From: Solirubrobacteraceae bacterium
GTDB taxonomy: Bacteria; Actinomycetota; Thermoleophilia; Solirubrobacterales; Solirubrobacteraceae
Length of the DNA: 42,592 nt
Assembly: GCA_036403675.1 (NCBI GenBank)
Contig: DASWQM010000196.1
Span: 1-42,592 of the forward strand
Direction: 5' to 3'
Shown here: piece after piece, positions 5,638-24,496 of the stretch
Numbering within the stretch: the stretch's first letter is position 1
How the letters are laid out: every line of letters begins with the position of its first letter
The notes under the pieces: generated by a model
Told to the model about the DNA's origin: nothing
Database searches by the model: none
What the model saw: the letters and a program-made list of their open reading frames with translations, nothing else
Program-made: the position numbers and the translations under genes

Positions 5638-6774
5638 CTACCCGGCCAGCGCGGCCCGCGGCGCCGTCCCCTCCTTGATCTCCTCGCGCACGATCGCCGC
5701 GCCGTCGACGAGCGCGCGCAGCTTGCTGGCGCCGATCATGCGCGGGAGGTTGATGAGGCCGCAGTCCGTCGAGAGCCCCAGGCGCTCGGCCGGCACGACC
5801 TCCAGGCAGCGGCGGATCCGCTCGGCGACGTCCTGCGCGGTCTCGGTGATCGTCGACTTCACGTCCACGACCCCGGCGACGAAGTCGCGGTCCCAGTTGT
5901 TGTCGACGAGCGGCTTGAGGTCGTCGACGCCCATGCGGGCGACCTCGTAGTTCAACGCGTCCATGTGCGCGTCGAGCGCCTGCGGGAAGATCGCCGCGGC
6001 GCGCTCGGGTGCGGCGGCGTCGGACGGGCGCTTGTCGAGCACCCAGGCGCCGAACTCCCGCTCTCCCTCGTCCGGGAAGTAGCCGGGCGTGCCGGAGTAG
6101 TTGCCCCAGCACGTGTGGACCCAGAACTGCACGCCCGGGACCTCGTCCACCGCGAGGTTGAAGGCCTCGACCTCCCAGTCGGACATGCCGTAGGGCCAGA
6201 CGAACTCGTCGAGCTGGATGATGTCGACGCCCTCGTCGGCGAGCTGCAGGAAGTCCTCGTGGAACGCCTTTGCGATCGCGCGGGCGAGGTCGCGGTTGGA
6301 GTTGTAGAACGTGTCGTTGGACGCGAGCGTCAGCACCTGGATGCCGTTGTAGGAGACCTTCACCGGCTTGCGCGTCGCCTTGCGCACGGCCCGCAGCGTG
6401 GCGACGTGGAACGGGTGCAGGCGGCGCACCTCGCCCGTGACCGTCGGCGCGAACAGCGTCGAGTAGATCGGCAGGCCGATCGGCGGACCGGACATCTGGT
6501 AGCCGGCCATCCGCTCGTAGTAGTGGTAGAGGATCTGGCCGTAGGGGCTGTCGCCGCCATACACCTTGCCATCGGAGATGACGTCGATCCCGGCGGCCTC
6601 CTGGTCATGGACGATCGCGGCGACGGCATCCTCGAACGCCTCGCGAGAGATCGAGTCGTAGACGAACTCCCCCTTCGGGAACTGGGCGAAGGCGTGGCCG
6701 TCGTACCAGCGTGGGTTGGGGTAGTTGCCGACCATTGTGGTGGGCAGCAGGATGTCCTGATTGCCGATGCGCAT
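5638..6774 (-). CDS. etnE: MetE-family zinc alkyltransferase, best read as epoxyalkane:coenzyme M transferase (EaCoMT, XecA/EtnE-like)
   Basis: 378 aa, the size of a single MetE C-terminal-type domain. It has a His-x-Cys...Cys zinc pattern (WVHTCWGN and STDCGL). It also has the blocks NYPNPRWYD (6700-6726) and VKSTITETA, which I recall as the conserved EaCoMT blocks. The CoM gene context supports the call. Confidence 0.75.
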   Translation of the reverse strand: MRIGNQDILLPTTMVGNYPNPRWYDGHAFAQFPKGEFVYDSISREAFEDAVAAIVHDQEAAGIDVISDGKVYGGDSPYGQILYHYYERMAGYQMSGPPIGLPIYSTLFAPTVTGEVRRLHPFHVATLRAVRKATRKPVKVSYNGIQVLTLASNDTFYNSNRDLARAIAKAFHEDFLQLADEGVDIIQLDEFVWPYGMSDWEVEAFNLAVDEVPGVQFWVHTCWGNYSGTPGYFPDEGEREFGAWVLDKRPSDAAAPERAAAIFPQALDAHMDALNYEVARMGVDDLKPLVDNNWDRDFVAGVVDVKSTITETAQDVAERIRRCLEVVPAERLGLSTDCGLINLPRMIGASKLRALVDGAAIVREEIKEGTAPRAALAG

Positions 6775-6847: not shown

Positions 6848-8953
6848 CTATCCCCCGACGAGCATTCCGGCGGGCGCGGTTGGCGCTGGGGGAGCAGGCG
6901 CGCCGACGATCCGCACGTCGACGGCCACGCTGCCGCGCGGCCCGGCGAGCACCGGGTTGAGATCGAGCTCGGCGATCCCGTCAACGCCGGCGATGAGCCG
7001 CGACGCGGCGGCGACTGTGGCCGCCAGCGCGCCGAGGTCTGCCGGCGGCCCGCCACGGGCCCCGGTCAGCAGCCCGATGCCCCGCAGGGACTCGATCGCC
7101 TCCAGCGCCTGCGCCTCGCTGACGGGCGCCAGGCGGAAGGCGACGTCCTGCAGCAGCTCGACGAAGACGCCGCCGAAGCCGACCATGACGACGGGACCGA
7201 GCGCCGGGTCGCGCAGCGCGCCGACGACCATCTCGGTGCCGCTCACCATCGGCTGGACCAGCACATCGGCCTGCGGGTCGAGTGCCAGCAGCGCAGCGGC
7301 GGCGGCGCGCACGGCGGCGGCGTCGCCGAGCCCGAGCTGCACACCGCCGGCGTCGGACTTGTGCACGTGCGCGCCGCCGGCGAGCTTCACCGCGACCGGC
7401 AAGCCGATCCGCGCGGCCGCCGCGGCGGCGTCGTCGGCGTCCGAGCAGACCGCCTGCGGCGGCACGGCGATTCCGAACGCCGCGGCGAGGCGGGCGGCGT
7501 CGCCGGGCGCCAGCAGCCCCGCCCCGACGGCTGGCAGATCGTCCGAGACGGCGGCGGGCGCCGCCTGCCGCGCGCGCCCGCGCACCTGCCCGTGCCGCCA
7601 GGCGAGCGCAGCGGCGCGCGCGGTGCGCTGCGGCCAGTCGAATGTGGGCACGCGCGCGTCGTGCAGGAGGTCGGCGTTGGGGCGCGCCTGCGCCGGCGCG
7701 ACCCAGCAGACGTAGACCGGGATGTCGAAGCCGCCGGCGTGCAGCCGCGCCGTCGCATCGCGCACCGCCGCCGCGACGGCGGGGTCCATCGCCGACCGCT
7801 GGAGCAGGACCGGCACGACGACGTCGACCTCGCCCGAGCGCGCGAGGAGCTCGATGGCGAGCGGGTAGAGATCCGCGAAGCGCGCCCACGCGGTCGTCAC
7901 GTCGACGGGGTTGCGGGCGCTGCCGTATCCCGGCAGCACGTCGGCGAGCTCACGCCGGAGGTCCTGCGACAGCTCGGGGACCTCCAGGCCCTGCTCGCTG
8001 AGCAGGTCCGCGAGCTCGACGCCGGTGCCGCCCGAGTTCGTCACGATCCCGACGCGCGGCCCGCGCGGCACGGGCTGCCAGTCCAGCGCCCGCGCGGCGT
8101 CGATCATCTCCAGGCCGCTGTCGGCGACGACGACGCCCGCCTGCTCGAGCGCCGCCCGCCAGATCACGGCATCGCCGGCGAGCGCGGCGGTGTGCGACAG
8201 CGCCGCGCGCGCGCCCGCGCCGGTGCGGCCGGTCTTCGTCACGAGCACCGGCTTGCGCGCCGTGACCTCGATCGCGGCCTCGCAGAAGCCGCGTGCGCCC
8301 GCGACGGACTCGACGAAGAAGCACGCGACGCTCGTCTGCTCGTCGGCGCCGAGATGGGCGAGCAGCTCGGCGTCCGTGACGTCGGCCTTGTTGCCGGCGG
8401 CGTAGACCTTCGCAAAGCCCATCCGCTGCTCGATCCCGAGCATGTACACCGCCATGCCGTAGGCACCCGATTGCGTGACGAGCGAGATCCCGCCGGCGTG
8501 CTCGGCCGTGCCGGCGGCCATCGAGGCGTTCAGTCCGGTGGCGCAGTTCTGCACGCCGAGGCAGTTCGGCCCGACGATCCGCACGCCGCCGCGGCGCGCC
8601 GCCGCGACCACCTGCTCCTGCAGCTCGGCGCCCTCTGTCCCCGTCTCCGCGAAGCCGCCCGACAGCACGACGACCGCGCCCGCGCCCACGGCGACGGCAT
8701 CGTCGACGACCGCCGGCACCGCGGCGGCCGGGACGGCGGCGACGACGAGGTCGACGCCGCCCGGCACGTCGCGCAGCCGGGCGTATGCGCGCAGGCCGCC
8801 GACCACCTCGCGGCGCGTGCTGACCGGGACGACGTCACCGGCGAACGCCTCGAGGTTGCGCATGACCGTCGTGCCGAGCTTGCCCGGCTCGTCGGAGGCG
8901 CCGACGACCGCGACGCGGGCGGGATCGAAGACCGCTCGCAGCCCGTGACTCAT
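6848..8953 (-). CDS. ADP-forming acyl-CoA synthetase (fused CoA-binding / succinyl-CoA-synthetase-like / ATP-grasp)
   Basis: The ATG at 8953 overlaps the upstream stop (ATGA). 701 aa, with the N-terminus VAVVGASDEPGKLG...IVGPNCLG and a C-terminal ATP-grasp region. The 835-aa track ORF is an over-extension. Confidence 0.85.
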   Translation of the reverse strand: MSHGLRAVFDPARVAVVGASDEPGKLGTTVMRNLEAFAGDVVPVSTRREVVGGLRAYARLRDVPGGVDLVVAAVPAAAVPAVVDDAVAVGAGAVVVLSGGFAETGTEGAELQEQVVAAARRGGVRIVGPNCLGVQNCATGLNASMAAGTAEHAGGISLVTQSGAYGMAVYMLGIEQRMGFAKVYAAGNKADVTDAELLAHLGADEQTSVACFFVESVAGARGFCEAAIEVTARKPVLVTKTGRTGAGARAALSHTAALAGDAVIWRAALEQAGVVVADSGLEMIDAARALDWQPVPRGPRVGIVTNSGGTGVELADLLSEQGLEVPELSQDLRRELADVLPGYGSARNPVDVTTAWARFADLYPLAIELLARSGEVDVVVPVLLQRSAMDPAVAAAVRDATARLHAGGFDIPVYVCWVAPAQARPNADLLHDARVPTFDWPQRTARAAALAWRHGQVRGRARQAAPAAVSDDLPAVGAGLLAPGDAARLAAAFGIAVPPQAVCSDADDAAAAAARIGLPVAVKLAGGAHVHKSDAGGVQLGLGDAAAVRAAAAALLALDPQADVLVQPMVSGTEMVVGALRDPALGPVVMVGFGGVFVELLQDVAFRLAPVSEAQALEAIESLRGIGLLTGARGGPPADLGALAATVAAASRLIAGVDGIAELDLNPVLAGPRGSVAVDVRIVGAPAPPAPTAPAGMLVGG

Positions 8954-9795
8954 GCGCAGCACGGACAGGAGGCGTGGTGGGCCGACCGGCTGAAGCGGCG
9001 CTCCAGCTCGCGCGGGTGGAACTCCGCGCGCCGCACGCCCAGGCGGTCGACCGAGCGCACGACCGCGAGCTCCTCGGCGCGGGGCGGTGCGACGGCCCGC
9101 AGGTCGCGGGCGACGTCGAGCTCGAAGCCGGTGGCGGCCAGCACGTGGTCGAGCTGGACGTCGGGGAACAGCTCGCGCAGCCGCAGGCGCCCGTCGGGGA
9201 AGTCGAAGACGCCGAGCTCGGTCACCATCGCGCCCGGGCCGCCGCCCGCCAGGCCGAGCTCCTTGCGCGTGCCCAGCGACGTCCGGTGGCCGAGATCGGT
9301 GATGAAGTCGCAGTCCGCGACGAGGGCCCGGCCGGAACGGTGGCGGGTCGTCCACAGCGTCAGCTCGCGGACGGTCGCCGAGAGGTTGCAGCCGCCGCCG
9401 CCGCCGCCGAGCTTGACCCGCGGCCGCGGCAGCCCCCCGACGGCGGTGACGTTCGTGTTGCCGTGGGGGTCGATCTGCGCGCCCGACAGGAACATCCGGT
9501 CAAGCTGGCCGCGCGCGGCCAGGTCGAAGAGCTCCTCGAAGCGCAGGATGTGGTCGGCGCCGCGCAGCAGCGCCCAGTCGTTGGACGTCGCCGGGATGAA
9601 CGCCGGCTCGGGGTCGAGCGCGTACGTCGATCCCTCGACGAGGACCATGTGCGGCGCGTGCGTGCGCTTGGCGACGTACATCGCCACCTGGGCGCACGGG
9701 CTGCCGAAGCCGTGGAAGACGATCTCGCCGTCGCGGATCGTGCGTGCGAGCGCGATGCAGAACCACTCGTCGATCGTGAACTCGACCGGCGTCAT
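8950..9795 (-). CDS. Family I CoA-transferase, subunit B (glutaconate/3-oxoadipate CoA-transferase beta-like)
   Basis: ATG at 9795, 281 aa: MTPVEFTIDEWFCIALARTI...MFLSGAQIDPHGNTNVT...GGGGGGCNL, which is typical of beta subunits. Confidence 0.8.
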   Translation of the reverse strand: MTPVEFTIDEWFCIALARTIRDGEIVFHGFGSPCAQVAMYVAKRTHAPHMVLVEGSTYALDPEPAFIPATSNDWALLRGADHILRFEELFDLAARGQLDRMFLSGAQIDPHGNTNVTAVGGLPRPRVKLGGGGGGCNLSATVRELTLWTTRHRSGRALVADCDFITDLGHRTSLGTRKELGLAGGGPGAMVTELGVFDFPDGRLRLRELFPDVQLDHVLAATGFELDVARDLRAVAPPRAEELAVVRSVDRLGVRRAEFHPRELERRFSRSAHHASCPCCA

Positions 9796-9850
9796 CGCGA
9801 GGACCGACCTCGCGAGTCGACGGGAGCGACGGTCGGGCGATGGCGCGCTG

Positions 9851-10774
9851 TCATGCCGACGCGAGCTCCATCCAGCGCTCGGTGGAGTCCTTCCACTCGC
9901 ACAGCCCCCGCAGGCGCTCGTCGCCGACGGCATCCAGGTACGCCGCCTCGCCGTCGCCGGTCACGTAGCGCGCGAGGTAGTCGCTGACGCCGTCGTCGCT
10001 GCCGGCGGCATCGACCCATTCGCGCAGATGCGCCCGGTCGTAGGCGTACTGCGGATAGCACGAGGTCGGGTGGGCGCCGAGCGGCGCCTCGACGACGGCG
10101 TCGACGAGGAACGACGGCAGCACGATGCCGGCCTCGGCGACCTCGTCGGCGGGCGCCAGCCGCTCGACGGTGACGATGAGCTGGCGGCTCGCGTGCGCGA
10201 AGCGCTCGTCGAGCACGAACGGGCGGCGCAGGTGGACGTTGCCGCGCCGGTCGGCGCTGAGGCCGTGGATGAGCGCGACGTCCGGCGCCAGGGCCGGCAC
10301 GGCGACGAGCCGCTGGCCCGTGAAGGGGCATGTGATCTCGCCGTACTCGGGGTGCAGCGCGAGGATCCCGGTGCCCGCGACGCCGCGCACCGGCATGAAC
10401 GGCAACCCGTACTCGGCCGCGCGCAGCTGCTGCAGCAGCGTGTAGCAGCAGGTCTCCCGGACCGCGATCAAGCCCAGCTCGGCGGCGCGGCGGTACGCGG
10501 GCGCCAGCCCGAGATCCTGCTCGAAGCCGACATAGCTCTGCTCGACCGCAGCCACCGCGCCGGCCCCGACGAGCAGGTCGACGTCGATCCCGTGGGCCGA
10601 GCCCACGAGGCGCAGGTCGCGGCGTTCCTGCCGGACGAGCTCCCGTACGAGCGCCATCGGCTCGCGGTAGGAGAGCGCGCCCCCGAGCGCGACGGTGTCG
10701 CCGTCGCGCACGAGCGCGATCGCATCGGCCAGGGTGCGCCGCTTGTCGGGCAGCATCCGCGCGCGCATCATCAC
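9851..10774 (-). CDS. Family I CoA-transferase, subunit A
   Basis: 307 aa, with ...LADAIALVRDGDTVALGG... and the rest of the alpha-subunit layout. Candidate starts GTG 10774, ATG 10771 and ATG 10768 overlap the upstream TGA (10771-10773). Confidence 0.8.
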   Translation of the reverse strand: MMMRARMLPDKRRTLADAIALVRDGDTVALGGALSYREPMALVRELVRQERRDLRLVGSAHGIDVDLLVGAGAVAAVEQSYVGFEQDLGLAPAYRRAAELGLIAVRETCCYTLLQQLRAAEYGLPFMPVRGVAGTGILALHPEYGEITCPFTGQRLVAVPALAPDVALIHGLSADRRGNVHLRRPFVLDERFAHASRQLIVTVERLAPADEVAEAGIVLPSFLVDAVVEAPLGAHPTSCYPQYAYDRAHLREWVDAAGSDDGVSDYLARYVTGDGEAAYLDAVGDERLRGLCEWKDSTERWMELASA

Positions 10775-11541
10775 TGCGCCGTCATGCCGCCGTCGGCGGC
10801 GTGGATCGAGCCGGTCAGGAAGGCGGCGTCGTCGCTGACGAGAAAGAGGGCGACGCGGGCGATCTCCTCAGGCGCCCCGAGTCGCCCGATCGGGTACTTC
10901 TCGACCGTCATCGCGATCCCGCGGTCGAGGTCGCCGTTGCCGCGCTCGGTGATCATCGTCTCCATCAGCGGTGTGAGCACCGTTCCCGGGCAGACGCAGT
11001 TGACGCGGATGCCGCGCGGTGCGAGGTCGAGCGCCATCGCGCGCGTCAGCGACACGACCGCGCCCTTGGCGGCGCAGTAGGCCGCGAAGCGGCGGATGCC
11101 GACCAGCGCCGCGACGGAGCCCTGGTTGACGATCGCGCCGCCGCCGTTGCGCTCCATCTCGGCGACGGCGTACTTCGAGCACAGCCACGTGCCCTTGACG
11201 TTGACGTCGAAGCAGCGGTCCCAGTCCTCCGCGCTGACGTCGACGACGTCCCCCGTGGCGTCCACGCCCGCGTTGTTGTAGAGCACGTCGAGCCGTCCCC
11301 AGGCGTCGACGGGCGCGCCGACGATCGCCCGCGCGCCGTCGTCGGAGCCGACGTCGCCGACGACGGCAAGCGCCTCGCCGCCGGACTGCGCGATCTCGTC
11401 GGCGACCTGCTCGGCGGCCTCCGCGCGCACGTCGGCGACGGCCACGCGGGCGCCCTCGGCCGCAAACAGCCGCGCCGCCGCGGCACCGATCCCCGAGCCG
11501 GCCCCGGTCACGATCGCCACTCTTCCGTCGAGGCGCCCCAC
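10771..11541 (-). CDS. Short-chain dehydrogenase/reductase (SDR)
   Basis: TGAGSGIG cofactor motif, NNAG, and catalytic YCAAK. I prefer the GTG at 11541 (VGRLDGRVAIVTGAG), which lies 10 nt after the upstream stop. The ATG at 11631 would overlap the upstream gene by 80 nt. Confidence 0.8.
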   Translation of the reverse strand: MGRLDGRVAIVTGAGSGIGAAAARLFAAEGARVAVADVRAEAAEQVADEIAQSGGEALAVVGDVGSDDGARAIVGAPVDAWGRLDVLYNNAGVDATGDVVDVSAEDWDRCFDVNVKGTWLCSKYAVAEMERNGGGAIVNQGSVAALVGIRRFAAYCAAKGAVVSLTRAMALDLAPRGIRVNCVCPGTVLTPLMETMITERGNGDLDRGIAMTVEKYPIGRLGAPEEIARVALFLVSDDAAFLTGSIHAADGGMTAQ

Positions 11542-11551
11542 GGCTCGGACG

Positions 11552-13123
11552 CTAGTTCGGTCCCGCCGCGCCGTGATGGGCTGCGGGAGACAAAGATCCG
11601 TCCGGACCTTGTCCGCCGTTGCCGACGACACGGGCGCGGGCGCGCTCCAGCAGCGCCTCCTCCGCCCTCGCCAGCGCCTCGCGCCGCTGCGCGACGGAGG
11701 CCGCGAGGCCCGCCGCCCCAGCGCGGTCGGCGTCGAGCATCGCCTCCATCGGAGCCTCGGCCGCCCCGCCGGTGACGGTCCGCGTGGCGATCGCGGCGCG
11801 CGGGTTCAGCGCATCGGCGATGAGCGCGGGCGAGATCGTCAGCGACCGCCCGAGCACTTCCTGCGCGGCGCCGTCGAGCGCCTGCGCGTCGAGCGCCGCC
11901 GGTCCCGCGCCGCGCTCGATCGCGACGGCGACGGCACGCCCGACGACGCGGTAGCAGGCGCGGTAGTCCAGGCCGCTCGCCAGCATGACGGCGTCGGCGA
12001 GGTCCGCGGCGCCGGCAAAGCCCTCGTACAGCGGCCGCGCGAGCGCCGGCACGTCGAGCTCGAGGTGCTCGACGACGGCCGCCGCGAGGCTCACGGCGCC
12101 GGCCGCGAGCGTCACGGACTCGGCGCAGTCGCGGTAGGCGTAGAGCAGGTTGTCGGTGCGACCCGACGGCGTGCGCTGCGTCGCGGCCAGGCCGGCGGCG
12201 CGCCCGATGAGCGTGCCGGCGGCGCCGCGGACGACCGCCAGCGCGTACGGGTTGCGCTTCTGCGGCATGAGCGCGCTGGCGCGGCAGTGCTCGGCGGCGA
12301 GGCGGATGAAGCCGAACTGCTCGCTGGCGTAGATCTCGAGGTCCTCGGCCAGGCGGCTGGCGGTCGTCGCCGCCAGCGCGGCGTGGGAGACGAGTTCGAC
12401 GAGGCCGTCCGCCTGCCACATCGCGTCGCGCGTGTGGGTGATGACCGCGTCGAAGCCGAGGTCGCGCGCGAGAGCCCGGCGGTCGACGGGGACGCGCGAG
12501 CCGTTGACGCCGCCGGCGCCCGCGGGGCTCGCGTTGACCCAGTCGAAGTCGCGCCGCAGCCGCTCGCCGTCGCGCAGCGCGGGCGCGGCGAACGACAGCA
12601 GCCAGTGGCCGGCGGTCGTCGGCTGCGCGACCTGCAAATAGGTGAAGTCGGGCATCAGCGTCCCGACGTGACGCGCGGCCTGCTCGACGAGCGCCGCTGC
12701 GAGCCGCGCGACCGCCTCCTCGAGGTCCAGCACGAGCGCCCGCAGGCCGATCCGGAAGGCGATCCGCCCAGCCTCCCGCCGCGGCCTGCCGGCCGCCAGC
12801 CAGCCGCCGGCCGCGCCGATGCGCTGCTCGAGCCAGCGCTCGCGCAGGTTGTAGAGGTCGCCGTAGCGGGCGTCGGCGAGCGTCGCCGGATCGCGTTCGC
12901 GCAGGTCCAGCAGCGCGGCCAGCAGAACCTGCTCCTGGTCGGCGGGAACCACCCCGTGCTCGCCGAGTGACAGGACGTGCGCGATGTCGGCCAGGTCCAT
13001 GCCGGCGGCCAGCAGCTCGCTGTCGGCCAGCTCGCGCTGGTAGCCGGCGGCAACGAGCTCGGGCGCGGGGCCGGCGCCGATCCGCCCGGTCGCGCCGAGG
13101 TAGCCCTCGGGCAGCTCGCTCAC
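11552..13123 (-). CDS. Aspartase/fumarase-superfamily lyase, argininosuccinate-lyase-like (candidate XcbC/XcbD-type CoM biosynthesis enzyme)
   Basis: The GTG at 13123 overlaps the upstream stop (GTGA). 523 aa, with the superfamily signature SALMPQKRNP. The 959-aa track ORF is an artefact. Confidence 0.8.
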   Translation of the reverse strand: MSELPEGYLGATGRIGAGPAPELVAAGYQRELADSELLAAGMDLADIAHVLSLGEHGVVPADQEQVLLAALLDLRERDPATLADARYGDLYNLRERWLEQRIGAAGGWLAAGRPRREAGRIAFRIGLRALVLDLEEAVARLAAALVEQAARHVGTLMPDFTYLQVAQPTTAGHWLLSFAAPALRDGERLRRDFDWVNASPAGAGGVNGSRVPVDRRALARDLGFDAVITHTRDAMWQADGLVELVSHAALAATTASRLAEDLEIYASEQFGFIRLAAEHCRASALMPQKRNPYALAVVRGAAGTLIGRAAGLAATQRTPSGRTDNLLYAYRDCAESVTLAAGAVSLAAAVVEHLELDVPALARPLYEGFAGAADLADAVMLASGLDYRACYRVVGRAVAVAIERGAGPAALDAQALDGAAQEVLGRSLTISPALIADALNPRAAIATRTVTGGAAEAPMEAMLDADRAGAAGLAASVAQRREALARAEEALLERARARVVGNGGQGPDGSLSPAAHHGAAGPN

Positions 13124-14466
13124 GGCACGCCGCCCTCCGAGAGCACGCGGTCGACGAGCGCGATCGCCGGGCTCGCCGCCGTGACCGGGTCCAGCAGCCG
13201 GTCGAGCTCCTCCGCCGTCAGCGCGGCGGCGATCGCCGGCTCGGCCGTCAGCGCCTCGCGCAGCGTGCGGCCTTCGGCCTGGCCGCGCATCGAGGCGGCG
13301 TAGACGAGCTCGTGCGCGGTGTGCTTCCCGAGGCGGTCGGTCAGCGCGCGCATGACCGGCTCGGACTGCACCCAGCCACCCTGCGCGGCGACGTTGGCCG
13401 CCATCCGCTCGGCGTCGACCTCCAGGCCCTCGACGAGGTCGATCCCGAAGTGCAGCGCGGCGGCGGTCGCCACGCAGGCCTCGGGCAGGTAGGCCCACTC
13501 GGCCTTCCAAGCGGCGCCGTCGCGCTCGTGCTCGTGGACGACCCCCTCCAGCGCGAGCCCCGCGGCGCCGCGGACGACGCGCCAGAGCGTGCCGAGATGC
13601 TCGGACAGCTCGGGGTTGCGCTTGTGCGGCATCGTGATCGAGCCGACGAGCCCGCTGCGCGTGGCCTCGGCGAGCTCGCCGATCTCCGGTCGCTGCAGCT
13701 GGTAGACCTCGCGCCCGATCTTCGCCAGCGTCCCCGTGACGAGCGCCAGCAGGGTGAGGAACTCCGCGACCCGGTCGCGCGCCGTCAGCCACGTGACGTC
13801 GGGCGCCGCCAGCCCGAGGCGCTCGCACATCCTCCCCTGCAGCTCGAGCCCCGCGTCGCCCCAGAACGAGCACGTGCCGACGGCGCCCGCGAGCTGGCCG
13901 ACGGCCAGCCGCGGGCGGGCCTGGGCGACGCGCTCGCGATGGCGGCGCACCTCGGCGACCCAGACCGCAGCCTTGAAGCCGAACGTCACCGGCAGCCCCG
14001 GCTGCCCGTGCGTGCGGCCCAGCACGACGGTCGTGCGGTGCTCGCGCGCGAGCACCAGCAGCGCCCGCTCCAGGCGCTGCAGGTCGGTGGCCGTGTCGTC
14101 CAGGACGTCGCGCATGACGATGCCGGTCCAGCTGTCGGTGACATCCTGAACCGTCGCGCCCCAGTAGACCCACTCGCGGGCCGCGGGCGACAGGCGCGCC
14201 TGCCACGCGCGGATGAGCCCGAGCGTCGAGTGGCCGCTCGCGCGCGTGCCGGCGGCGACCTCCGCGAGGTCGAAGCCGTCCACGTCGGCGGTCGCCACGA
14301 TCTCCTCCGCGGCCGCCCGCGGCACGAGGCCGAGGTCGGCCTGCGCGGCGGCGAGCGCCGCCAGGACGTCGAGCCAGGCCTGCAGGCGGCCGCGCTCGCC
14401 GAAGCGCTCGCGCGCCGCGGGCGTGCTCCACAGGTGCTCGTAGACCACCGAGTCGATGATGTGCAT
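13120..14466 (-). CDS. Aspartase/fumarase-superfamily lyase, adenylosuccinate-lyase / carboxymuconate-cycloisomerase-like (candidate XcbC/XcbD-type)
   Basis: ATG at 14466 (MHIIDSVVYEHLW), 448 aa, with the signature GSITMPHKRNP. Confidence 0.8.
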   Translation of the reverse strand: MHIIDSVVYEHLWSTPAARERFGERGRLQAWLDVLAALAAAQADLGLVPRAAAEEIVATADVDGFDLAEVAAGTRASGHSTLGLIRAWQARLSPAAREWVYWGATVQDVTDSWTGIVMRDVLDDTATDLQRLERALLVLAREHRTTVVLGRTHGQPGLPVTFGFKAAVWVAEVRRHRERVAQARPRLAVGQLAGAVGTCSFWGDAGLELQGRMCERLGLAAPDVTWLTARDRVAEFLTLLALVTGTLAKIGREVYQLQRPEIGELAEATRSGLVGSITMPHKRNPELSEHLGTLWRVVRGAAGLALEGVVHEHERDGAAWKAEWAYLPEACVATAAALHFGIDLVEGLEVDAERMAANVAAQGGWVQSEPVMRALTDRLGKHTAHELVYAASMRGQAEGRTLREALTAEPAIAAALTAEELDRLLDPVTAASPAIALVDRVLSEGGVP

Positions 14467-14471: not shown

Positions 14472-15365
14472 TCACGACGTCGGCACCGGCGTCCAGGCCG
14501 GGACGAGGAGGTGCAGCGCCTCGCGGACCTCCTCGAGCGTCGCGCCCCACGGCACGACCACGAGCGCGCCGTCGGACTCGATGCCGCGCTCGCGCAGGCA
14601 GCACTTCACGAGCGTCGGCTCCGTGCGCTCGTCCGCGCGCACGCGCGGGCACAGCTCCACCCGGGCCGCGGGCTCGGCGCCGTACAGCTCGCTGTGGATC
14701 TGGCGCGAGCGCTCGCAGCCGAGCAGCGTCCAGCCACCGTCCGGTGGCTCGGCCGGGCCGGAATCAAGGAAGTCGACCGGGCCGGCGAGCTCGAGCCCGC
14801 CGCAGCGGCAGGGCAGCAGCCAGTGCTCGGTCGCGACCTCCGCCGCGATCTCGTTGAGGTCGATCGCCTCCAGCTCGAGCGCGACCGGGTCGAGGTCCTC
14901 GTCGTACTCGAGCACGCGCCGGGCCATGTCGAGCAGCTTCGGCGGCGCGGGCGGGACGACCTCGACGACACGGATCCGGACCGGCGCCGGCTCGACGATG
15001 AGGTTGACGTGCTGGTTGCGCCCCTCGACGACGTAGACGCGCGCCGCCTGACCGCTGGCCGCTGCCGCGCGTGCCATCTGCGTGGCGTTGCCCGTGTCGA
15101 TCTGCGGGTCGCGCACGAACGCGGTCTCCTCGGGCCCCGAGACCCAGTGGATCTCGCTGACGGGCCAGAACAGGGCGTCGCCGGCGGGCTCCTTGTCGAC
15201 CGTCACGACCGCATGGCCCTCGTCGCCCTCGGCGATCAGCACCTCCGTGCGCCGGTATACGCGCCGGTTGACGAGGTGCTCGCGAACGGCGTCCTCGGTC
15301 AGCGCCACGCCGAGGCGCTGCACGCTCACGCCGCGGTACGGCCGGCAGATCCAGTTCGGGCGCAT
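14472..15365 (-). CDS. Hypothetical protein with a Cys-rich C-terminal half; no family recognised
   Basis: 297 aa from the ATG at 15365, which shares its A with the upstream TGA. Third-position GC is high. The gene is embedded in the operon, with a 5-nt gap to the next start. Cys motifs are LLPCRCGG, LLGCERS, ELCPR and VKCCL. Confidence 0.65.
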   Translation of the reverse strand: MRPNWICRPYRGVSVQRLGVALTEDAVREHLVNRRVYRRTEVLIAEGDEGHAVVTVDKEPAGDALFWPVSEIHWVSGPEETAFVRDPQIDTGNATQMARAAAASGQAARVYVVEGRNQHVNLIVEPAPVRIRVVEVVPPAPPKLLDMARRVLEYDEDLDPVALELEAIDLNEIAAEVATEHWLLPCRCGGLELAGPVDFLDSGPAEPPDGGWTLLGCERSRQIHSELYGAEPAARVELCPRVRADERTEPTLVKCCLRERGIESDGALVVVPWGATLEEVREALHLLVPAWTPVPTS

Positions 15366-16090
15366 CACACCGCCGTCCAGGCGCCGTCGATGACGAGCAT
15401 CGCGCCGTTCATGTACGCCAGCCGGTCCCCGGCGAGCAGCGCGACGGCATCGGCGATCTCCTCGGCGACCGCGACGCGCCCGGCCGGGATCCGGGTGAGC
15501 ACGTCGGCGCGCAGCTGCGGGTCCTCGAGGCGCCAGCGCGTCATCGGCGTGTCGACGATCCCCGGGCAGATCGCGTTGGCGCGGATGCCTCGTGCGGCGT
15601 AGTCGGCCGCCAGCGAGCGCGTGAGCTGCACGACGCCGCCCTTGGACGCGGAGTAGGCGCAGCGGCCGGGGAAGGCGACGAGGCCTGCGGCGGATGCGAC
15701 GTTGACGATCGAGCCGCCGCCACGCGCGAGCATTCCCGGCAGCGCCGCGCGGCAGACGAGAAACGGGCCGGTGAGGTTGACCTCGAGGACGCGGCGCCAC
15801 TCGTCGACCGGCGTCACGTCGCACTCGGCGGCCGCCGGCGACCCCGTGATGCCGGCGACGTTGACGACGGCGTCGAGCGGGCCGAGCTCCGCCTCGGCCC
15901 GGCCGACCGCGCGCTCGACGGCGTCGGCGTCGGTGACGTCCGCCGTGAGCGCGAGCGCGTCGAGATCGCGCAGGCGCGCGCCGTCGAGGTCGAGCGCGGC
16001 CACTGCCGTGCCGCCGGCCAGCAGGCGCTCGACGCAGGCGCGCCCGATGCCCGACGCGGCTCCGGTGACGAACGCGACCGCCGGCGTCAC
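15365..16090 (-). CDS. SDR with the 2-(R)-hydroxypropyl-CoM dehydrogenase-like residue pattern
   Basis: 241 aa, GTG start at 16090. TGAASGIG cofactor motif. Ser lies at Tyr-13 and the catalytic motif is YSASK. Arg lies at Tyr-3 (GRCAY) and at Tyr+41 (TPMTRWR), the same spacing I recall for S142/R152/Y155/K159/R196 of Xanthobacter R-HPCDH. Confidence 0.75.
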   Translation of the reverse strand: MTPAVAFVTGAASGIGRACVERLLAGGTAVAALDLDGARLRDLDALALTADVTDADAVERAVGRAEAELGPLDAVVNVAGITGSPAAAECDVTPVDEWRRVLEVNLTGPFLVCRAALPGMLARGGGSIVNVASAAGLVAFPGRCAYSASKGGVVQLTRSLAADYAARGIRANAICPGIVDTPMTRWRLEDPQLRADVLTRIPAGRVAVAEEIADAVALLAGDRLAYMNGAMLVIDGAWTAV

Positions 16091-16093: not shown

Positions 16094-17866
16094 CTACGTC
16101 TCCTGGAGCTCGAGCGTGCGCAGGATGCTGATCGCCAGCTGCGCCTCGAAGCGATCGCGCTGGCGTGCGAAGTCGAGCTTCGCGAGGCCCTGGACCTTGT
16201 CGAGCCGGTAGCGCACCGTCTTCGGATGCACGAACATCGCCGCCGCCGTGCGCTGGAGGTTGCAGTCGTTGGCGAGGAACGCCTCGATCGTGTGCGTCAG
16301 GTCGCTGGGATGGTCGCGGTCGTAGTCGAGCACCCCGCCGAGGACGCGGCGCGCGAACTCGCGCAGGTCGCCACGGTCGCCGGGGGCGAGCAGGAAGCGC
16401 ATGACGCCGAGCTCGTCGAGCACGGCGACGTGATGGCAGCCCACATCCGTCGGCGCCGCGTTGAGGGCGACCTGCGCCTGGGCGAGCGCCTCGGGCAGGT
16501 CGGCGATGTCGGCGGCGCACGCGCTCACCCCGGCCGCCACGTCGATCTCCGGGAAGCGCTCGCCGAGCCGGTCGACGACGGCCTCGACGCTGGCGCGCGG
16601 ATCGTCGGTGGCGGGCAGCAGCAGCGCGATGAGCGAGCCCCGCGCCGCCGCCAGCGCGGCCTCGCCGCCCTGCGCCGTCGCGGCCCGCTCGGCGACCTGG
16701 GCGAGCGACTCGCGCAGCGCCAGCTGCGGCAGCGCGCCATCGCTCGACGCGTGGCGCGGGCGCGCCTGCGCGCGGATGAGCGCCACCCGCACCTTCTCCG
16801 GCAGCTCGAGGCGCAGCGCGCGCGCCCAGACGAGCGCCTCGGCGACGTCGGCGATCTTGCCGTCGAGCAGGTCCCAGAGGAAGTCCCCGCGGACCCTCGT
16901 GCGAGCCTGTAGCACCGCGCGCTCGCGCGTGAGCTCCAGCGCGCACATGATCGTCGCCTGCTCGACGAGCACGACGTCGAGCGGCACGGGCGGGTGGCGC
17001 AGCGCGACGCCGAGGTAGCCGAGCCGCTCGCCCCCGGCGAAGACGTCGCGGACGAGCAGGCGGTCGTCGGCGACGGGCCGGGGCGCCGCGATGCGCGCCG
17101 CCATCCGCGACTGGAGCGCCAGCCCCGCGGCACCGCTGGCGGCCATCACGCGGCAGCCGGTGTCGAGCGTCGCGACGTCGGCATCCAGCAGCCGCGCGAC
17201 GCCGTCGACGAGATCGGTGAGCGCGACGTCCTCCAGCACGAGCCGCATGAGCTCGTCGTGGACCTCGGTGGCGCGCTGCAGGACCTCGTTCTGCGTCTCG
17301 AGCCGCTGGTTGACGATCTGCAGGCCGTCGACGGTGCGGCGCTGCGCCTCGTAGAGCCGCGCGTTCTCGACGGCGATCGCGGCGAGGTTGGCGAGCGTCG
17401 TCATCGCCTGCACGTCGGCGGCGACGTAGGCGTCGGGCTGTCGCCGCCAGCTCATCGCCACGCCGATCGCGCGGCCGCGCACGGCCATCGGCGCGCCGAG
17501 CGCCGCCCGCGTGCCGTCGGCCTGCGCGATGTCCGCGAAGTCGCGCGAGATCCGCTGGTCGGACTGGTAGTCGTCGACGCGCACCGGGCGCCCCTCCTCG
17601 AAGACCTTGCCGGCGACGCCCTGCCCGCGGCCGACGACGAGGCGCGCCGTCCCGACGGTGCGATGTCCCGTGCAGGCCTGCATCCGCAGCGTCTCGCCGG
17701 TCTCGTCGGCGAGCAGGATGCCGGCGATGTCGGCGTTCGTCGTCGCGACGACGGCGTTGAGGACCGACAGCAGCGTGGTGTCGAGCTCGAGCGAGCTGAG
17801 GATGTCGGCGGCGACGCGCCCGAAGGCGCCGAGGCGTCCGGCCTCCAGGGTTGCGACGGGACCCAT
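16094..17866 (-). CDS. GAF-domain / PucR-family transcriptional regulator
   Basis: 590 aa. The N-terminal region is GAF-like (LLSVLNAVVATTNADIAGILLADETGETLRMQA...GVAGKV). The C-terminal PucR helix-turn-helix (HTH) is NLQRTAAAMFVHPKTVRYRLDKV. The stop lies 3 nt before the next gene's start. Confidence 0.85.
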   Translation of the reverse strand: MGPVATLEAGRLGAFGRVAADILSSLELDTTLLSVLNAVVATTNADIAGILLADETGETLRMQACTGHRTVGTARLVVGRGQGVAGKVFEEGRPVRVDDYQSDQRISRDFADIAQADGTRAALGAPMAVRGRAIGVAMSWRRQPDAYVAADVQAMTTLANLAAIAVENARLYEAQRRTVDGLQIVNQRLETQNEVLQRATEVHDELMRLVLEDVALTDLVDGVARLLDADVATLDTGCRVMAASGAAGLALQSRMAARIAAPRPVADDRLLVRDVFAGGERLGYLGVALRHPPVPLDVVLVEQATIMCALELTRERAVLQARTRVRGDFLWDLLDGKIADVAEALVWARALRLELPEKVRVALIRAQARPRHASSDGALPQLALRESLAQVAERAATAQGGEAALAAARGSLIALLLPATDDPRASVEAVVDRLGERFPEIDVAAGVSACAADIADLPEALAQAQVALNAAPTDVGCHHVAVLDELGVMRFLLAPGDRGDLREFARRVLGGVLDYDRDHPSDLTHTIEAFLANDCNLQRTAAAMFVHPKTVRYRLDKVQGLAKLDFARQRDRFEAQLAISILRTLELQET

Positions 17867-17921
17867 GTGCGGACTCTAGTCCCCTTGGGTTGCTCTCCGA
17901 AAGACAATCGAGCAGCGGGGC

Positions 17922-17939
17922 TTTGTCCGCGCGAGCAAA
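17922..17939. promoter_or_regulatory. Imperfect 18-nt palindrome TTTGTCCGCGCGAGCAAA in the divergent intergenic region
   Basis: 14 of 18 positions are self-complementary (TTTG..CGCGCG..CAAA). It sits in the lower-GC 130-nt gap between the PucR regulator gene and the 2-KPCC gene. Confidence 0.25.
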
Positions 17940-17996
17940 CGAGACGACCCTGTATCGCACGTACGCTGGCGACACCACAGCCACGAGGAGGACGAC

Positions 17997-19547
17997 ATTC
18001 CCGAGCTTGACGTCGTCGGCTGGCGGTCCGCCATCGAGGATGCGCTGGGCCGTCCCGGCGCAGCCCCGATCCTCAACCTCGACGACGACGGCCGGGGGCC
18101 GTACGACGCGATCTTCGTCGGCGGCGGCGCCGCCGGGCGCTTCGGCGGCTCCTACCTGCGGGCGATGGGCGGGCGCGCGCTGATCGTCGACCGGTGGCCG
18201 TTCCTCGGCGGCAGCTGCCCGCATCAGGCGTGCGTGCCCCACCACCTCTTCTCCGAGGCGGCGGCTCTGCTCGACCGCGCGCGGTGGTTCTCCGGCGAGC
18301 TCTTCTTCCCCCCGTTCGACCCGGCGCGCGCGAGCATCCTGCAGCTCGTCGAGCTGTTCCGCGCCGGCCGCTCGACCGCGCACGCCTTCATGAACTGGCA
18401 GACCCAGGTCCAGCTCGAGGTCGAGTTCGTCCTCAACGCGGAGGCCGAGATCCTCGACGCCAACCGCGTGTCGGCGGCCGGCCGGACCTTCGAGGCCCGC
18501 AACCTCGTCATCGGGCTCGGCGCCTTCCAGAAGCCGCTGGAGATCCCGGGCGCCGACCTGCCCGGCGTGCACGACTGGGCGACGCTCGTCGAGGACCTCG
18601 ACTACGAGCCGACGCGCTGCGTGATCATCGGCGGCGGCAAGACGGCCGTCGAGTACGGCTCGTTCTTCCAATCGACCGGCTGCGCGACGACGATCGTCTC
18701 GCGCGCGCCGGTCATGCGGACGCGCAGCCTGCACCACGTCGACGAGGACATCCGCCGCTATGTCGTCGACGGCATGCGCGCCCGCGGCATGACGCTGCTC
18801 GAAGGCGCCCGCGTGATCGCGCTCGAGGGCGACGGCGTGGTCGAGCGTGCGCTCGTCAGCCATCCCGACGGCCGGGTGGAGGCGATCGAGTGCGACTTCG
18901 TCTTCAACTGCACCGGCGAGCGCGCCAACAGCGAGGCGGCCGTGCGCGCGCTCGGGCTGGCGACCGGTCCGGGCGGAGAGATCCTCGTCGACGACCGGAT
19001 GCGCACGAGCGTCGACGGCGTCTACGCCGCAGGCGACGTCATCGGATCGCCGATGGAGATGTTCAAGGCGCGCAAGTGCGGCATGACGGCGGCACGCAAC
19101 GTCATGGGCGAGGACTACACGTTCGACTTCAGCGAGTACCCCGACTTCCTCCACACGACCTACGAGGTCAGCTGGGTCGGGCTGAGCGAGGAGGAGGCGC
19201 GCGAGCGCCACGACGACATCGCGGTGATCCGCATGCCGCCCAAGGGGCAGGAGCGCGACAACCCGCTGCCCTGCGCCGAGGGGACGATGCTCTACGCCTT
19301 TGCCAAGCCGGAGCTCTCCGGCCTGCAGAAGTGCATCGTCGACTCCGGATCTCGGCGTATCATCGGTTTCCACCATGTCGGCTACGGGGCCAAGGACGCC
19401 TTCCAGTACCTCGACGCCCTCCTGCGCCGTCCCCAGGGGCTGACGATCGATGAGCTCGGGGAGATGAACGAGCTGTTCCTCAACCCGGAGCACTTCATCC
19501 AGCTCTCGCGCCTGCGGGCCGGACGGCGAGAGCTGGTGGATCTTTGA
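17997..19547 (+). CDS. xecC: 2-oxopropyl-CoM reductase (carboxylating), 2-KPCC-like flavoprotein disulfide oxidoreductase
   Basis: Motifs: YDAIFVGGGAAGRFGGSYLRAMGGRALIVDRWPFLGGSCPHQACVPHHLF, GGGKTAVEYG, PMEMFKARK, YPDFLHTTYEVSWVG, HHVGYGAKDAFQYL and the C-terminal ELFLNPEHFIQLSRLRAG. These closely follow my recollection of Xanthobacter 2-KPCC. The 5' end is uncertain. Homology extends upstream of the first ATG (18165), and there is no in-frame ATG, GTG or TTG after the stop at 17877. I propose the ATT at 17997, which follows GAGGAGGA. Confidence 0.85.
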   Translation: MPELDVVGWRSAIEDALGRPGAAPILNLDDDGRGPYDAIFVGGGAAGRFGGSYLRAMGGRALIVDRWPFLGGSCPHQACVPHHLFSEAAALLDRARWFSGELFFPPFDPARASILQLVELFRAGRSTAHAFMNWQTQVQLEVEFVLNAEAEILDANRVSAAGRTFEARNLVIGLGAFQKPLEIPGADLPGVHDWATLVEDLDYEPTRCVIIGGGKTAVEYGSFFQSTGCATTIVSRAPVMRTRSLHHVDEDIRRYVVDGMRARGMTLLEGARVIALEGDGVVERALVSHPDGRVEAIECDFVFNCTGERANSEAAVRALGLATGPGGEILVDDRMRTSVDGVYAAGDVIGSPMEMFKARKCGMTAARNVMGEDYTFDFSEYPDFLHTTYEVSWVGLSEEEARERHDDIAVIRMPPKGQERDNPLPCAEGTMLYAFAKPELSGLQKCIVDSGSRRIIGFHHVGYGAKDAFQYLDALLRRPQGLTIDELGEMNELFLNPEHFIQLSRLRAGRRELVDL

Positions 19548-20386
19548 GCTCCGACCACGCGCTCACCGGCGGGCAGATCGCCCGCTTCGCCATCAAGCGG
19601 CCCGGCGGCGCCACGCCGGGCTTCCTCGAGCTGCCCGACCGCACGGTCAAGCCGCGCGCCGCCGGCGTCACGCACGTGCTCGACAAGGGGCTGACGCTCG
19701 TGGAGCTCGACGGGCTGCTCGGCTCGGCCGGACCGCACATCGACTTCGTCAAGCTCGGCTGGGGCACGGCCTACGTCTCGGCCGACGTCTCGGCGAAGGT
19801 CGCCCACTGCGATCGCGCGAACGTCGGCGCGTGCCTCGGCGGCACGCTGCTGGAACTGGCCTGGGCGCAGGGGCGCATGGCGCAGTACGTGCACTGGGCG
19901 CACGGCATCGGCGTCTCCTGCGTCGAGGTCTCGAACGGCTCGGTCGGCATGTCCCCCGCCGAGAAGCGCCGGCTGATCCAGGAGCTCGCGGAGGAGTTCG
20001 AGGTCCTCGCCGAGGTCGGCTCCAAGCGGCCGGGACCGGTCGACGTGCGCAGCTGGTGCGACGAGCTGGCGCGCGACCTCGACGCCGGCGCGAGCTGGCT
20101 CGTCACCGAGGGACGCGAGAGCGGCACGGTCGGGCTGTTCGAGCCCAACGGAGACGTGCGCGTGGAGCTCGTGGACGCGATCGCCGCAGCCGTGCCGGTC
20201 GACCGGGTGATCTTCGAGGCGCCGCTGAAGGCGCAGCAGGCGGTCCTCATCCACCTCGTCGGCCCGAACGTCGGGCTCGGCAACATCGCTCCCGGGGAGG
20301 CGCTGTCGGTGGAGACGCTGCGGCGTGGCCTGCGAACCGACACGATCGACCTCGCGCTTCCCGAGCTCGACCGGCTGCCCGTCTAG
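19544..20386 (+). CDS. comA: (2R)-phospho-3-sulfolactate synthase (ComA / XcbB-like)
   Basis: 280 aa. The motifs HIDFVKLGWGTAYV, GGTLLE, VEVSNGS, EVGSK, DLDAGASWLVTEGRESG, IFEAPLKAQQ and VETLRRGLRTDT align with archaeal ComA. The TTG start overlaps the upstream TGA (TTGA). Confidence 0.9.
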   Translation: MSSDHALTGGQIARFAIKRPGGATPGFLELPDRTVKPRAAGVTHVLDKGLTLVELDGLLGSAGPHIDFVKLGWGTAYVSADVSAKVAHCDRANVGACLGGTLLELAWAQGRMAQYVHWAHGIGVSCVEVSNGSVGMSPAEKRRLIQELAEEFEVLAEVGSKRPGPVDVRSWCDELARDLDAGASWLVTEGRESGTVGLFEPNGDVRVELVDAIAAAVPVDRVIFEAPLKAQQAVLIHLVGPNVGLGNIAPGEALSVETLRRGLRTDTIDLALPELDRLPV

Positions 20387-22150: not shown

Positions 22151-22278
22151 CGGACCTCCTTCGGGTTTGGGCTTTGTTCCCCCGCACACCAGAGGCGGGG
22201 GCCCACCGAAGGCCCCTCATGATTTCGACGACCCGCCGGATGGAGCTACGCCAGCGATGCCGCCAGCGCCGTGACCGC
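22103..22278 (-). repeat. Copy 2 of the duplicated leader/signal module
   Basis: See copy 1. Its upstream end is the genuine 3' end of the TauE-family gene (stop at 22246-22248). Confidence 0.8.

Positions 22279-22970: not shown

Positions 22971-22974
<4 letters not shown>
22246..22974 (-). CDS. TauE/SafE-family (DUF81) membrane anion/sulfite-type exporter
   Basis: 242 aa and polytopic. The N-terminus LQSATGFGFALVSAPIL is typical of the family. The GTG start overlaps the gpmI stop (GTGA). Confidence 0.75.

Positions 22975-24496
<1,522 letters not shown>

Follow-up and report, generated by a model that had tools for sequence, protein, structure and literature searches.

Orthologs of XcbC and XcbD Joined at the Site of a Lost xcbE Gene in a Probable Coenzyme M Cluster of a Solirubrobacteraceae Bacterium

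The Locus

The window analyzed here, with a GC content of 74%, is the whole of a 42,592-nt NCBI contig from Solirubrobacteraceae bacterium, an uncultured soil actinobacterium. On its minus strand, two open reading frames (ORFs) of the aspartase/fumarase superfamily lie next to each other at 13120-14466 (448 amino acids, aa, from an ATG) and 11552-13123 (523 aa), and both are supported by the GC content of third codon positions (GC3) and by homology. They belong to a minus-strand operon that GC3 frame analysis and the ORF listing place from 17866 down to 4208. The product of 13120-14466 matches the Pfam domains Lyase_1 and ADSL_C (E 9e-39 and 3e-15), and that of 11552-13123 matches Lyase_1 and ASL_C2 (E 5e-34 and 5e-07). 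We hold with good confidence that these lyases are XcbD and XcbC of the Xanthobacter-type coenzyme M (CoM) pathway and that they lie in a chromosomal cluster for CoM-dependent epoxide catabolism. The features on which this reading turns are the following.

11552..13123, minus strand: xcbC ortholog, argininosuccinate-lyase-like (NF052535, identity, tree, loop residues)
13120..14466, minus strand: xcbD ortholog, adenylosuccinate-lyase-like (NF052536, identity, tree, loop GSITMPHKRNPE)
13120..13123, minus strand: GTGA overlap of the xcbD stop with the xcbC start, the site of xcbE in relatives (sequence and synteny)
14472..15365, minus strand: xcbA ortholog, 297 aa, DUF7714, predicted [2Fe-2S] reductase (NCBIfam, Pfam)
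19544..20386, plus strand: xcbB/comA, phosphosulfolactate synthase, 280 aa (Pfam ComA, identity)

At the junction of the two lyase genes (GTGCCGTGAGCGAG, reading GGC GTG CCG TGA GCG AG), the GTG start of xcbC overlaps the TGA stop of xcbD by 4 nt. An initial annotation, made from the letters of the window, had described two superfamily lyases back to back with a GTGA overlap and had quoted a motif for each, all of which the sequence bears out: the loop GSITMPHKRNP is found in the XcbD-like lyase and (A)SALMPQKRNP in the XcbC-like lyase. Overlaps of 1-4 nt occur at almost all junctions of the minus-strand operon, and the coupling of xcbD to xcbC is therefore ordinary for a high-GC operon. An alternative GTG start of xcbD at 14475 (451 aa), which gives a GTGA overlap with the xcbA stop and is the start called in the related loci L001, L005, and L090, is more likely than the ATG.

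Identity of the Two Lyases

The XcbD-like lyase scores 656.3 bits on the NCBIfam XcbD model NF052536, above the cutoff of 600 and beside 643 bits for XcbD of Xanthobacter autotrophicus Py2 itself, and its next-best model gives 463 bits (own cutoff 626). Its identity is 47% to Py2 XcbD and 57% to XcbD of Nocardioides sp. JS614, compared with 26-41% to PurB and PcaB outgroups, from which it is split at 100% bootstrap in a neighbor-joining (NJ) tree of 96 sequences (200 bootstraps). In the catalytic loop, GSITMPHK(R/V)NPE, an Ile stands for the second Ser/Thr of PurB and PcaB, a feature common to Py2, JS614, and Methylocystis. Furthermore, nine residues that are at least 97% conserved in the family occur in none of the four outgroups, and the window protein keeps nine of nine. 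By these comparisons, 13120-14466 encodes an XcbD ortholog and not PurB or PcaB.

The nearest solved structures are PcaB 1re5 for XcbD (273 bits) and ArgH 1tj7; no structure of XcbC or XcbD was found in the PDB. Apart from this structural match, little speaks for reading the XcbD-like lyase as a 3-carboxymuconate cycloisomerase (PcaB), which we regard as barely credible: its scores on PcaB models are 347 bits for NF006554 (cutoff 595) and 266 for TIGR02426 (cutoff 355.75), the identity of 41% to a PcaB lies below that to XcbD, and no pca genes are present in the contig. The initial annotation had named clustering with carboxymuconate cycloisomerases as grounds for abandoning its reading; no such clustering is seen, as XcbD groups apart from PcaB at 100% bootstrap.

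For the XcbC-like lyase, the XcbC model NF052535 is the best match, at 471.3 bits and thus 205 bits above the 266 of the ArgH model. Identity is 42% to Py2 XcbC and 52% to JS614 XcbC, in contrast to 28-30% to the ArgH outgroups of the alignment and at most 37% to argH-annotated genes (partial tblastn matches), and the split from ArgH again has 100% bootstrap support (NJ, 67 sequences). The loop reads RAS-x-LMPQKRNPYAL (R-A/S-S) where ArgH has GSS-x-MPQKKNPD. At the position of Tyr162, the ArgH outgroups have an invariant His, which we take to be the residue proposed as catalytic in argininosuccinate lyase and delta-crystallin. All 11 of 11 family-specific XcbC columns are kept in the window protein. 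Additionally, the initial annotation had noted a C-terminal extension of about 50 aa on this lyase, which is indeed present: the ArgH model TIGR00838 stops at residue 467 of 523, leaving about 56 aa, whereas the XcbC model reaches residue 498 and so covers about 30 of them, the last 25 or so being a clade-specific tail. Most of the extension is, judged by model coverage, a family trait. These comparisons mark 11552-13123 as an XcbC ortholog, not an ArgH.

The pair might still be taken for the adenylosuccinate lyase (purB) and argininosuccinate lyase (argH) of housekeeping metabolism, since the family resemblance is real and the two proteins score 285 bits on the purB model and 266 on the argH model. 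Both scores fall under the curated cutoffs (TIGR00928, 326.2; TIGR00838, 279.5), and those on the XcbD and XcbC models exceed them by 370 and 205 bits. The loops have GSIT and RAS in place of GSS, the invariant His of the ArgH outgroups is a Tyr, the trees separate the pair from PurB and ArgH at 100% bootstrap, and no purine or arginine genes lie nearby. We consider this identity very improbable, and the PurB, ArgH, and PcaB readings are all rejected on scores, trees, motifs, and context. ArgH, PurB, and PcaB share the fold family of the window lyases but differ from them, at 26-41% identity, in catalytic loop and gene context. The claim of the initial annotation that the pair consists of cofactor-biosynthetic XcbC and XcbD rather than purine or arginine enzymes is thus upheld by NCBIfam scores, identity, and trees, and the check that it had proposed, profile searches and trees against XcbC, XcbD, PurB, and ArgH, places the pair with the Xcb families at 100% bootstrap.

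The trees comprise 92 XcbD-like or 63 XcbC-like sequences with four outgroups each: ArgH of E. coli, Anoxybacillus, and Azospirillum with an argH-annotated Roseibium gene for XcbC, and PurB of E. coli, Pantoea, and Haloprofundus with an Azospirillum PcaB for XcbD. The reference clusters compared were those of pXAUT01 (Py2) and pNOCA01 (JS614). When plasmids were searched by tblastn with both lyases, the xcb lyases of JS614, Mycolicibacterium chubuense NBB4, and Py2 ranked first, joined by that of Methylocystis for the XcbC-like query; the remaining matches were argH-annotated genes at no more than 37% identity and pcaB- or purB-annotated genes at no more than 41%.

Two further Xcb genes are encoded with the pair. 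The product of 14472-15365 scores 351 bits on the NCBIfam XcbA model NF052538 (cutoff 150), matches Pfam DUF7714 (E 7e-82), and shares 44% identity with Py2 XcbA; five of its Cys are invariant among the window, Py2, and JS614 proteins. Its gene lies directly 5' of xcbD, and the statement of the initial annotation that no obvious XcbA equivalent is present was therefore mistaken. ComA/XcbB (19544-20386), in a divergent operon behind a homolog of 2-ketopropyl-CoM reductase/carboxylase (2-KPCC), has 253 bits on Pfam ComA and 53% identity to JS614 ComA; on TIGR03849 the window protein scores 231 bits and that of JS614 217, both under the curated cutoff of 280. Thus, XcbB, XcbC, XcbD, and XcbA are all encoded within 9 kb.

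In the pathway described by Wu et al. (2022; PMC9457059), XcbB adds sulfite to phosphoenolpyruvate (PEP), XcbC eliminates phosphate to give sulfoacrylate, and XcbD adds L-cysteine to form 3-sulfopropionyl-cysteine, which is the thiolation step. The pyridoxal 5'-phosphate (PLP) enzyme XcbE then cleaves and decarboxylates 3-sulfopropionyl-cysteine to sulfoethanethioaldehyde, which the [2Fe-2S] protein XcbA reduces to CoM (PMC9457059). The step assignment of the initial annotation was inexact: it had given phosphate elimination and decarboxylation to the two lyases and thiolation to the PLP enzyme, whereas XcbD performs the thiolation and XcbE the cleavage and decarboxylation (PMC9457059).

Loss of xcbE

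In agreement with the initial annotation, which had reported no PLP-dependent XcbE-like gene in the window, tblastn searches of the whole 42.6-kb contig with the XcbE sequences of Py2, JS614, and the metagenomic protein P0089 returned no XcbE at E<=0.5, and scans of the ORFs of the contig found no PLP enzyme of any fold. Elsewhere this gene is a near-constant neighbor of xcbD. Among 80 listed loci from the GTDB genomes, xcbE lies directly 3' of xcbD in 68 of the 69 whose downstream sequence is long enough to tell, and xcbA lies directly 5' of xcbD in 71 of 76. The order xcbD then xcbE is also that of JS614, NBB4, Methylocystis, Carbonactinospora, and Kineosporia. In P0089 (782 aa, JGI metagenome), an N-terminal XcbD is naturally fused to a C-terminal XcbE-like PALP domain, a fusion that can be taken as Rosetta-stone support for a functional coupling of the XcbD and XcbE steps.

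The window shares its synteny with L001 (JGI) and L090 (ENA forest soil), whose XcbD proteins are 94% and 90% identical to that of the window, and in all three xcbD is joined straight to xcbC by a 4-nt overlap. The synteny of L005 (XcbD 86% identical), L089, and L102 is otherwise the same, with a PALP gene of 326-338 aa between xcbD and xcbC that overlaps both; for the PALP gene of L005, XcbE is the best NCBIfam model (313 bits). The set of the window, L001, and L090 is monophyletic at 99-100% bootstrap and lies inside the xcbE-bearing clade, which argues for one clean deletion in their common ancestor. Given that xcbE follows xcbD in nearly all GTDB loci and that the sister loci keep xcbE between the lyases, the tandem xcbD-xcbC arrangement is a deletion scar. 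We therefore read the junction, from this comparison of gene orders, as the mark of a clean loss of xcbE and as a derived state rather than the canonical layout, a point that the initial annotation missed when it treated the back-to-back pair as given.

The direct junction is present in three independent assemblies, and two fragmentary Logan contigs from separate soil runs span it; thus, it is not an assembly artifact. Other Logan "joints" at xcbD/xcbC are k-mer noise in high-GC DNA. As for close homologs of XcbE, P0246, P0248, and P0249 are encoded immediately 3' of xcbD in xcb clusters of the xcbE-bearing sister group, and P0242 follows an overlapping ORF without assigned identity on a 1.3-kb contig. 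Among those checked, none was found outside xcb clusters, the contig of P0242 being too short to tell. The metagenome matches listed for the nearest XcbE are only distant relatives of D-cysteine desulfhydrase, at no more than 50% identity.

A second, independent direct overlap of xcbD (632 bits) and an xcbC-like gene (354 bits) occurs at L077:9992-12843, in a metagenome-assembled genome of an uncultured member of the Actinomycetes (CAWBJP010000004.1). No xcbA, xcbB, xcbE, or gene for epoxyalkane:CoM transferase (EaCoMT) was found within 10 kb of this pair, and its neighbors encode a P450, a metallo-beta-lactamase (MBL)-fold protein, an F420-dependent luciferase-like monooxygenase (F420-LLM), and an acyl-CoA dehydrogenase.

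Selection on the Remaining Genes

We compared ratios of nonsynonymous to synonymous substitution (dN/dS) by the method of Nei and Gojobori (NG86). Between members of the xcbE-less set (dS 0.16-0.37), dN/dS is 0.18-0.23 for xcbA, 0.19-0.21 for xcbD, and 0.23-0.24 for xcbC. Between the window and L001 it is 0.20 for comA, 0.21 and 0.17 for the glycolytic neighbors tpi and iPGM (cofactor-independent phosphoglycerate mutase), and 0.07 for the EaCoMT homolog, which is 98% identical. For xcbE-bearing sister pairs, xcbA, xcbD, and xcbC give 0.19-0.39. Within the xcbE-less subclade no highly conserved site has changed except for a conservative T112S in XcbD. Based on dN/dS values like those of the glycolytic neighbors and on the retention of conserved sites, selection has not been relaxed since the loss of xcbE. 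A change of function in XcbD after this loss is unsupported, T112S being the sole change at a conserved site.

These values bear on two ways in which the loss of xcbE might have altered the pathway. One is that CoM is made without any XcbE-family enzyme: a generic cysteine-S-conjugate lyase would do the C-S cleavage and decarboxylation, XcbD or XcbA would do so themselves, or XcbD would work with another sulfur donor. The absence of xcbE under undiminished purifying selection on xcbA, xcbD, xcbC, and comA would fit such a route, as would the finding that the checked close XcbE homologs of the clade were seen in no context other than clusters of the xcbE-bearing sister group. We nevertheless consider it unlikely, though deserving of attention, because the near-universal xcbA-xcbD-xcbE trio and the P0089 fusion point to an XcbE that is normally indispensable, and because XcbD of the xcbE-less subclade is so little changed at its conserved sites. 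The other is that the deletion broke de novo synthesis of CoM and that the remaining xcb genes were kept for another purpose, for example the handling of sulfoacrylate or sulfolactate, or salvage, or that CoM or an intermediate is scavenged. The isolated xcbD-xcbC pair of L077 speaks for it, as does cluster erosion in two relatives. In L002 (ENA ERZ25039547 contig_105053), xcbA and xcbD are kept, xcbE, xcbC, and comA are missing, and the oxidoreductase gene is split; in L088 (ENA ERZ25039504 contig_14611), xcbC and the oxidoreductase gene are truncated, to 290 and 216 aa, and lie next to a DDE transposase. Against a broken pathway, the four biosynthetic genes evolve like housekeeping neighbors at dS up to 0.37 with their family-specific residues kept, and the CoM-consuming enzymes are intact and, to judge from the EaCoMT homolog, more conserved still; we regard this explanation as quite improbable.

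A Proposed Pathway

We favor instead a pathway in which only the XcbE step has left the cluster. From their orthology, we infer that XcbB, XcbC, XcbD, and XcbA of the window keep the activities of their Xanthobacter counterparts. ComA/XcbB (19544-20386) would join sulfite and PEP to phosphosulfolactate, from which XcbC (11552-13123) is predicted to eliminate phosphate to give sulfoacrylate. XcbD (13120-14466), a predicted 3-sulfopropionylcysteine synthase, would add L-cysteine across the double bond of sulfoacrylate to yield 3-sulfopropionyl-cysteine. An enzyme encoded outside the cluster, most likely elsewhere in the genome, would supply the PLP-dependent C-S cleavage and decarboxylation; it may be a paralog from the D-cysteine-desulfhydrase family or a C-S lyase of unrelated origin. 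XcbA (14472-15365), a [2Fe-2S] protein, would then carry out the final reduction to CoM. The initial annotation had supposed that the last steps are encoded elsewhere or performed differently, which holds for the XcbE step and fails for the reductase step, as xcbA is present. We further infer that CoM is used by the co-encoded homologs of EaCoMT, of two short-chain dehydrogenases/reductases (SDRs), and of 2-KPCC. With homologs of XecA, XecC, XecD, and XecE thus co-encoded, the placement of the pair inside a CoM-utilization operon by the initial annotation was correct.

Several observations weigh against this proposal. The contig lacks XcbE, one of the five enzymes that define the pathway, and de novo synthesis of CoM by the organism is therefore putative. 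The erosion of the cluster in L002 and L088, which belong to the same clade, shows that the pathway is dispensable in some lineages. NG86 estimates of dN/dS are approximate in a genome of 74% GC, and the sampling of outgroups in the trees is thin, at four sequences each. Finally, the 471.3 bits of the XcbC-like lyase lie under the curated NCBIfam cutoff of 575 for NF052535. However, XcbC proteins of complete xcb clusters score 378 (JS614), 423 (Methylocystis iwaonis), and 493 (L005) on this model, and only that of Py2 (742) passes; the cutoff therefore excludes every non-Xanthobacter ortholog tested. It is a conservative naming rule set near the Xanthobacter sequence, not the boundary of the orthologous group. 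In annotation practice, this cutoff misses all actinobacterial XcbC orthologs tested, and xcbC and xcbD are routinely mislabeled as argininosuccinate or adenylosuccinate lyase. With orthologs left out by the cutoffs of NF052535 (575) and TIGR03849 (280), automated annotation will call such genes "argininosuccinate lyase" or "lyase family protein."

Relation to Known Systems

Like the xcbABCDE genes of X. autotrophicus Py2 (pXAUT01; PMC9457059), the window encodes orthologs of XcbA-D, at 37-47% identity and with the same signature loops, and links them to homologs of XecA (EaCoMT), XecC (2-KPCC), XecD, and XecE. It differs in lacking XcbE and in its gene order, which is A-D-C with a divergent B rather than A-B-C-D-E. 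Furthermore, the Py2 genes are on a megaplasmid, whereas the window cluster is chromosomal, has no alkene monooxygenase in its 42.6 kb, and adds genes for a CoA-transferase, an acyl-CoA synthetase, and an aldehyde dehydrogenase.

Apart from xcbE, the cluster has the gene set and order, at 48-68% identity, of the etn/CoM clusters known from the ethene and vinyl chloride degraders Nocardioides sp. JS614 (pNOCA01), M. chubuense NBB4, and M. vinylchloridicum (PMC8727900). The genes common to the window and JS614/NBB4 are comA, xcbA, xcbD, xcbC, and those for the SDRs, an FAD oxidoreductase, CoA-transferase subunits A and B, an acyl-CoA synthetase, an aldehyde dehydrogenase, and a CdaR-type regulator. 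The clusters of JS614, NBB4, and M. vinylchloridicum have xcbE between xcbD and xcbC and are plasmid-borne, horizontally acquired, and accompanied by the etnABCD monooxygenase; the window cluster, by contrast, has lost xcbE and adjoins gap-pgk-tpi on the chromosome. A CoM/epoxide cluster without its own alkene monooxygenase is also known from Methylohalobius crimeensis and other methanotrophs (PMC11507031) and from a plasmid of Methylocystis iwaonis, and the role suggested for the methanotroph clusters is the detoxification or use of epoxides made elsewhere (PMC11507031). These clusters have a D-cysteine-desulfhydrase-like XcbE, and that of M. crimeensis lacks an XcbA homolog, so that the window is the reverse case. 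The enzymes of the window thus belong to known, curated families, and the cluster is a modestly novel one, an xcbE-less, four-gene variant of the JS614/Mycolicibacterium type. Our literature search found no mention of CoM genes in Solirubrobacter or of xcbE-less clusters.

Distribution and Implications

The synthesis of CoM by bacteria was worked out between 2018 and 2022 in one organism, and it is described as limited to a few alkene degraders. We searched the GTDB species-representative genomes for an XcbD signature, GSITMPHK plus NPE[LI][SA]EHL, and found at least 599 stretches with it, at least 536 of them confirmed relatives; among the matches listed, the highest identity to the window XcbD is 66%. 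The 80 listed loci (L008-L087) come from Actinomycetota (including Pseudonocardia, Kribbella, Kineosporia, Streptomyces, and Geodermatophilaceae), Chloroflexota, Dormibacterota, Acidimicrobiia, and sponge-associated Proteobacteria (Spongiisociaceae), and an EaCoMT gene lies within 10 kb at 33 of the 41 that are full length. The xcbA-xcbD(-xcbE)-xcbC module is therefore present in hundreds of uncultured soil Actinomycetota and members of other phyla, whereas the literature speaks of a "small number of bacteria." Given this spread, and a chromosomal cluster here without a monooxygenase, CoM-dependent epoxide metabolism may be far commoner in soil than work on isolates implies.

With the other cluster genes still held under selection, the deletion of xcbE is a natural experiment on the indispensability of XcbE and on the workings of the XcbE and XcbA steps, which are the least understood of the pathway. 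If a widespread soil lineage of Solirubrobacteraceae does have a four-enzyme route to CoM, the five-step bacterial pathway would have to be revised.

Remaining Genes of the Cluster and Its Surroundings

The other features of the cluster and its border are listed here.

17997..19547, plus strand: disulfide oxidoreductase, 2-KPCC-like (full length only from an ATT start)
17867..17996, no strand assigned: regulatory region separating the divergent regulator and 2-KPCC-like genes, with conserved blocks (alignment of five relatives)
16094..17866, minus strand: regulator with GAF and PucR/CdaR-type helix-turn-helix (HTH) domains, 590 aa (Pfam GAF, GGDEF_2, HTH_30)
15365..16090, minus strand: SDR, R-hydroxypropyl-CoM dehydrogenase (XecD)-like (50% identity to Py2 XecD)
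10771..11541, minus strand: SDR, like XecE and the SDR of the JS614 cluster (63% to the JS614 SDR; 53% to XecE over 175 aa)
8950..10774, minus strand: CoA-transferase subunits A (9851-10774) and B (8950-9795) (Pfam CoA_trans; 65% and 68% to the JS614 subunits)
6848..8953, minus strand: ADP-forming acyl-CoA synthetase (Pfam domains; 51% to the JS614 enzyme)
5638..6774, minus strand: EaCoMT homolog, 378 aa (Meth_synt_2; 50% to Py2 XecA, full length)
4208..5635, minus strand: aldehyde dehydrogenase, final gene of the operon (Pfam Aldedh 463 bits; NCBIfam matches all below cutoffs)
22246..24500, minus strand: iPGM (22971-24500) and a TauE/SafE sulfite-exporter-family protein (22246-22974) (last genes of the gap-pgk-tpi operon, adjoining comA)

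The 2-KPCC homolog shows 53% identity with Py2 XecC and 65% with its JS614 homolog and carries the 2-KPCC-type motifs CPHQAC and FLNPEH. No ATG, GTG, or TTG lies upstream of its FAD-binding GGGAAG motif, and a conserved N-terminus continues in frame behind an ATT codon located 5 nt after GAGGAGGA. The same ATT is present in L001, and L005 has ATG at this position. The gene thus probably uses a non-canonical ATT start, as a result of which gene callers shorten the protein to 460 aa. Decay by N-terminal truncation was considered and rejected, because a conserved, in-frame stretch behind the ATT accounts for the 56 missing codons.

Within 17867-17996, five relatives conserve the blocks TGCTCTC..AAAGACAA..(N~14)..GCTTTGTC; in addition, CGTACGCT (TANNNT-like -10), about 30 nt before the Shine-Dalgarno sequence, is invariant. 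These blocks may serve the GAF/PucR regulator as operator and promoter elements. An Rfam scan and promoter and terminator scans found nothing. No alkene or soluble di-iron monooxygenase was found in any ORF of the contig, nor within 10 kb on either side of L001, L005, and L089.

The cluster lies on a chromosomal background of ftsH, an ECF sigma factor gene, uvrC, rapZ, and genes for a ROK kinase and HtrA, together with gap-pgk-tpi. The 90%-identity clusters to which UvrC and PGK of the window belong include proteins assigned to Solirubrobacteraceae bacterium. The gap-pgk-tpi operon (22246-27590, minus strand) runs via 4-nt overlaps into the iPGM and TauE/SafE genes and ends beside comA, a neighborhood that recurs in L001 and L005 and is not found in L089. 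The substrates of ComA are PEP and sulfite, and the genes for iPGM and TauE/SafE adjoin comA; a functional link of these two genes to the CoM pathway is possible. Farther away, 38040-40550 (minus strand) encodes an 836-aa regulator whose N-terminal part is SARP/AfsR-like and which matches adenylate-cyclase-type (LipJ) and TOMM kinase/cyclase fusion models; it is unrelated to the xcb genes.

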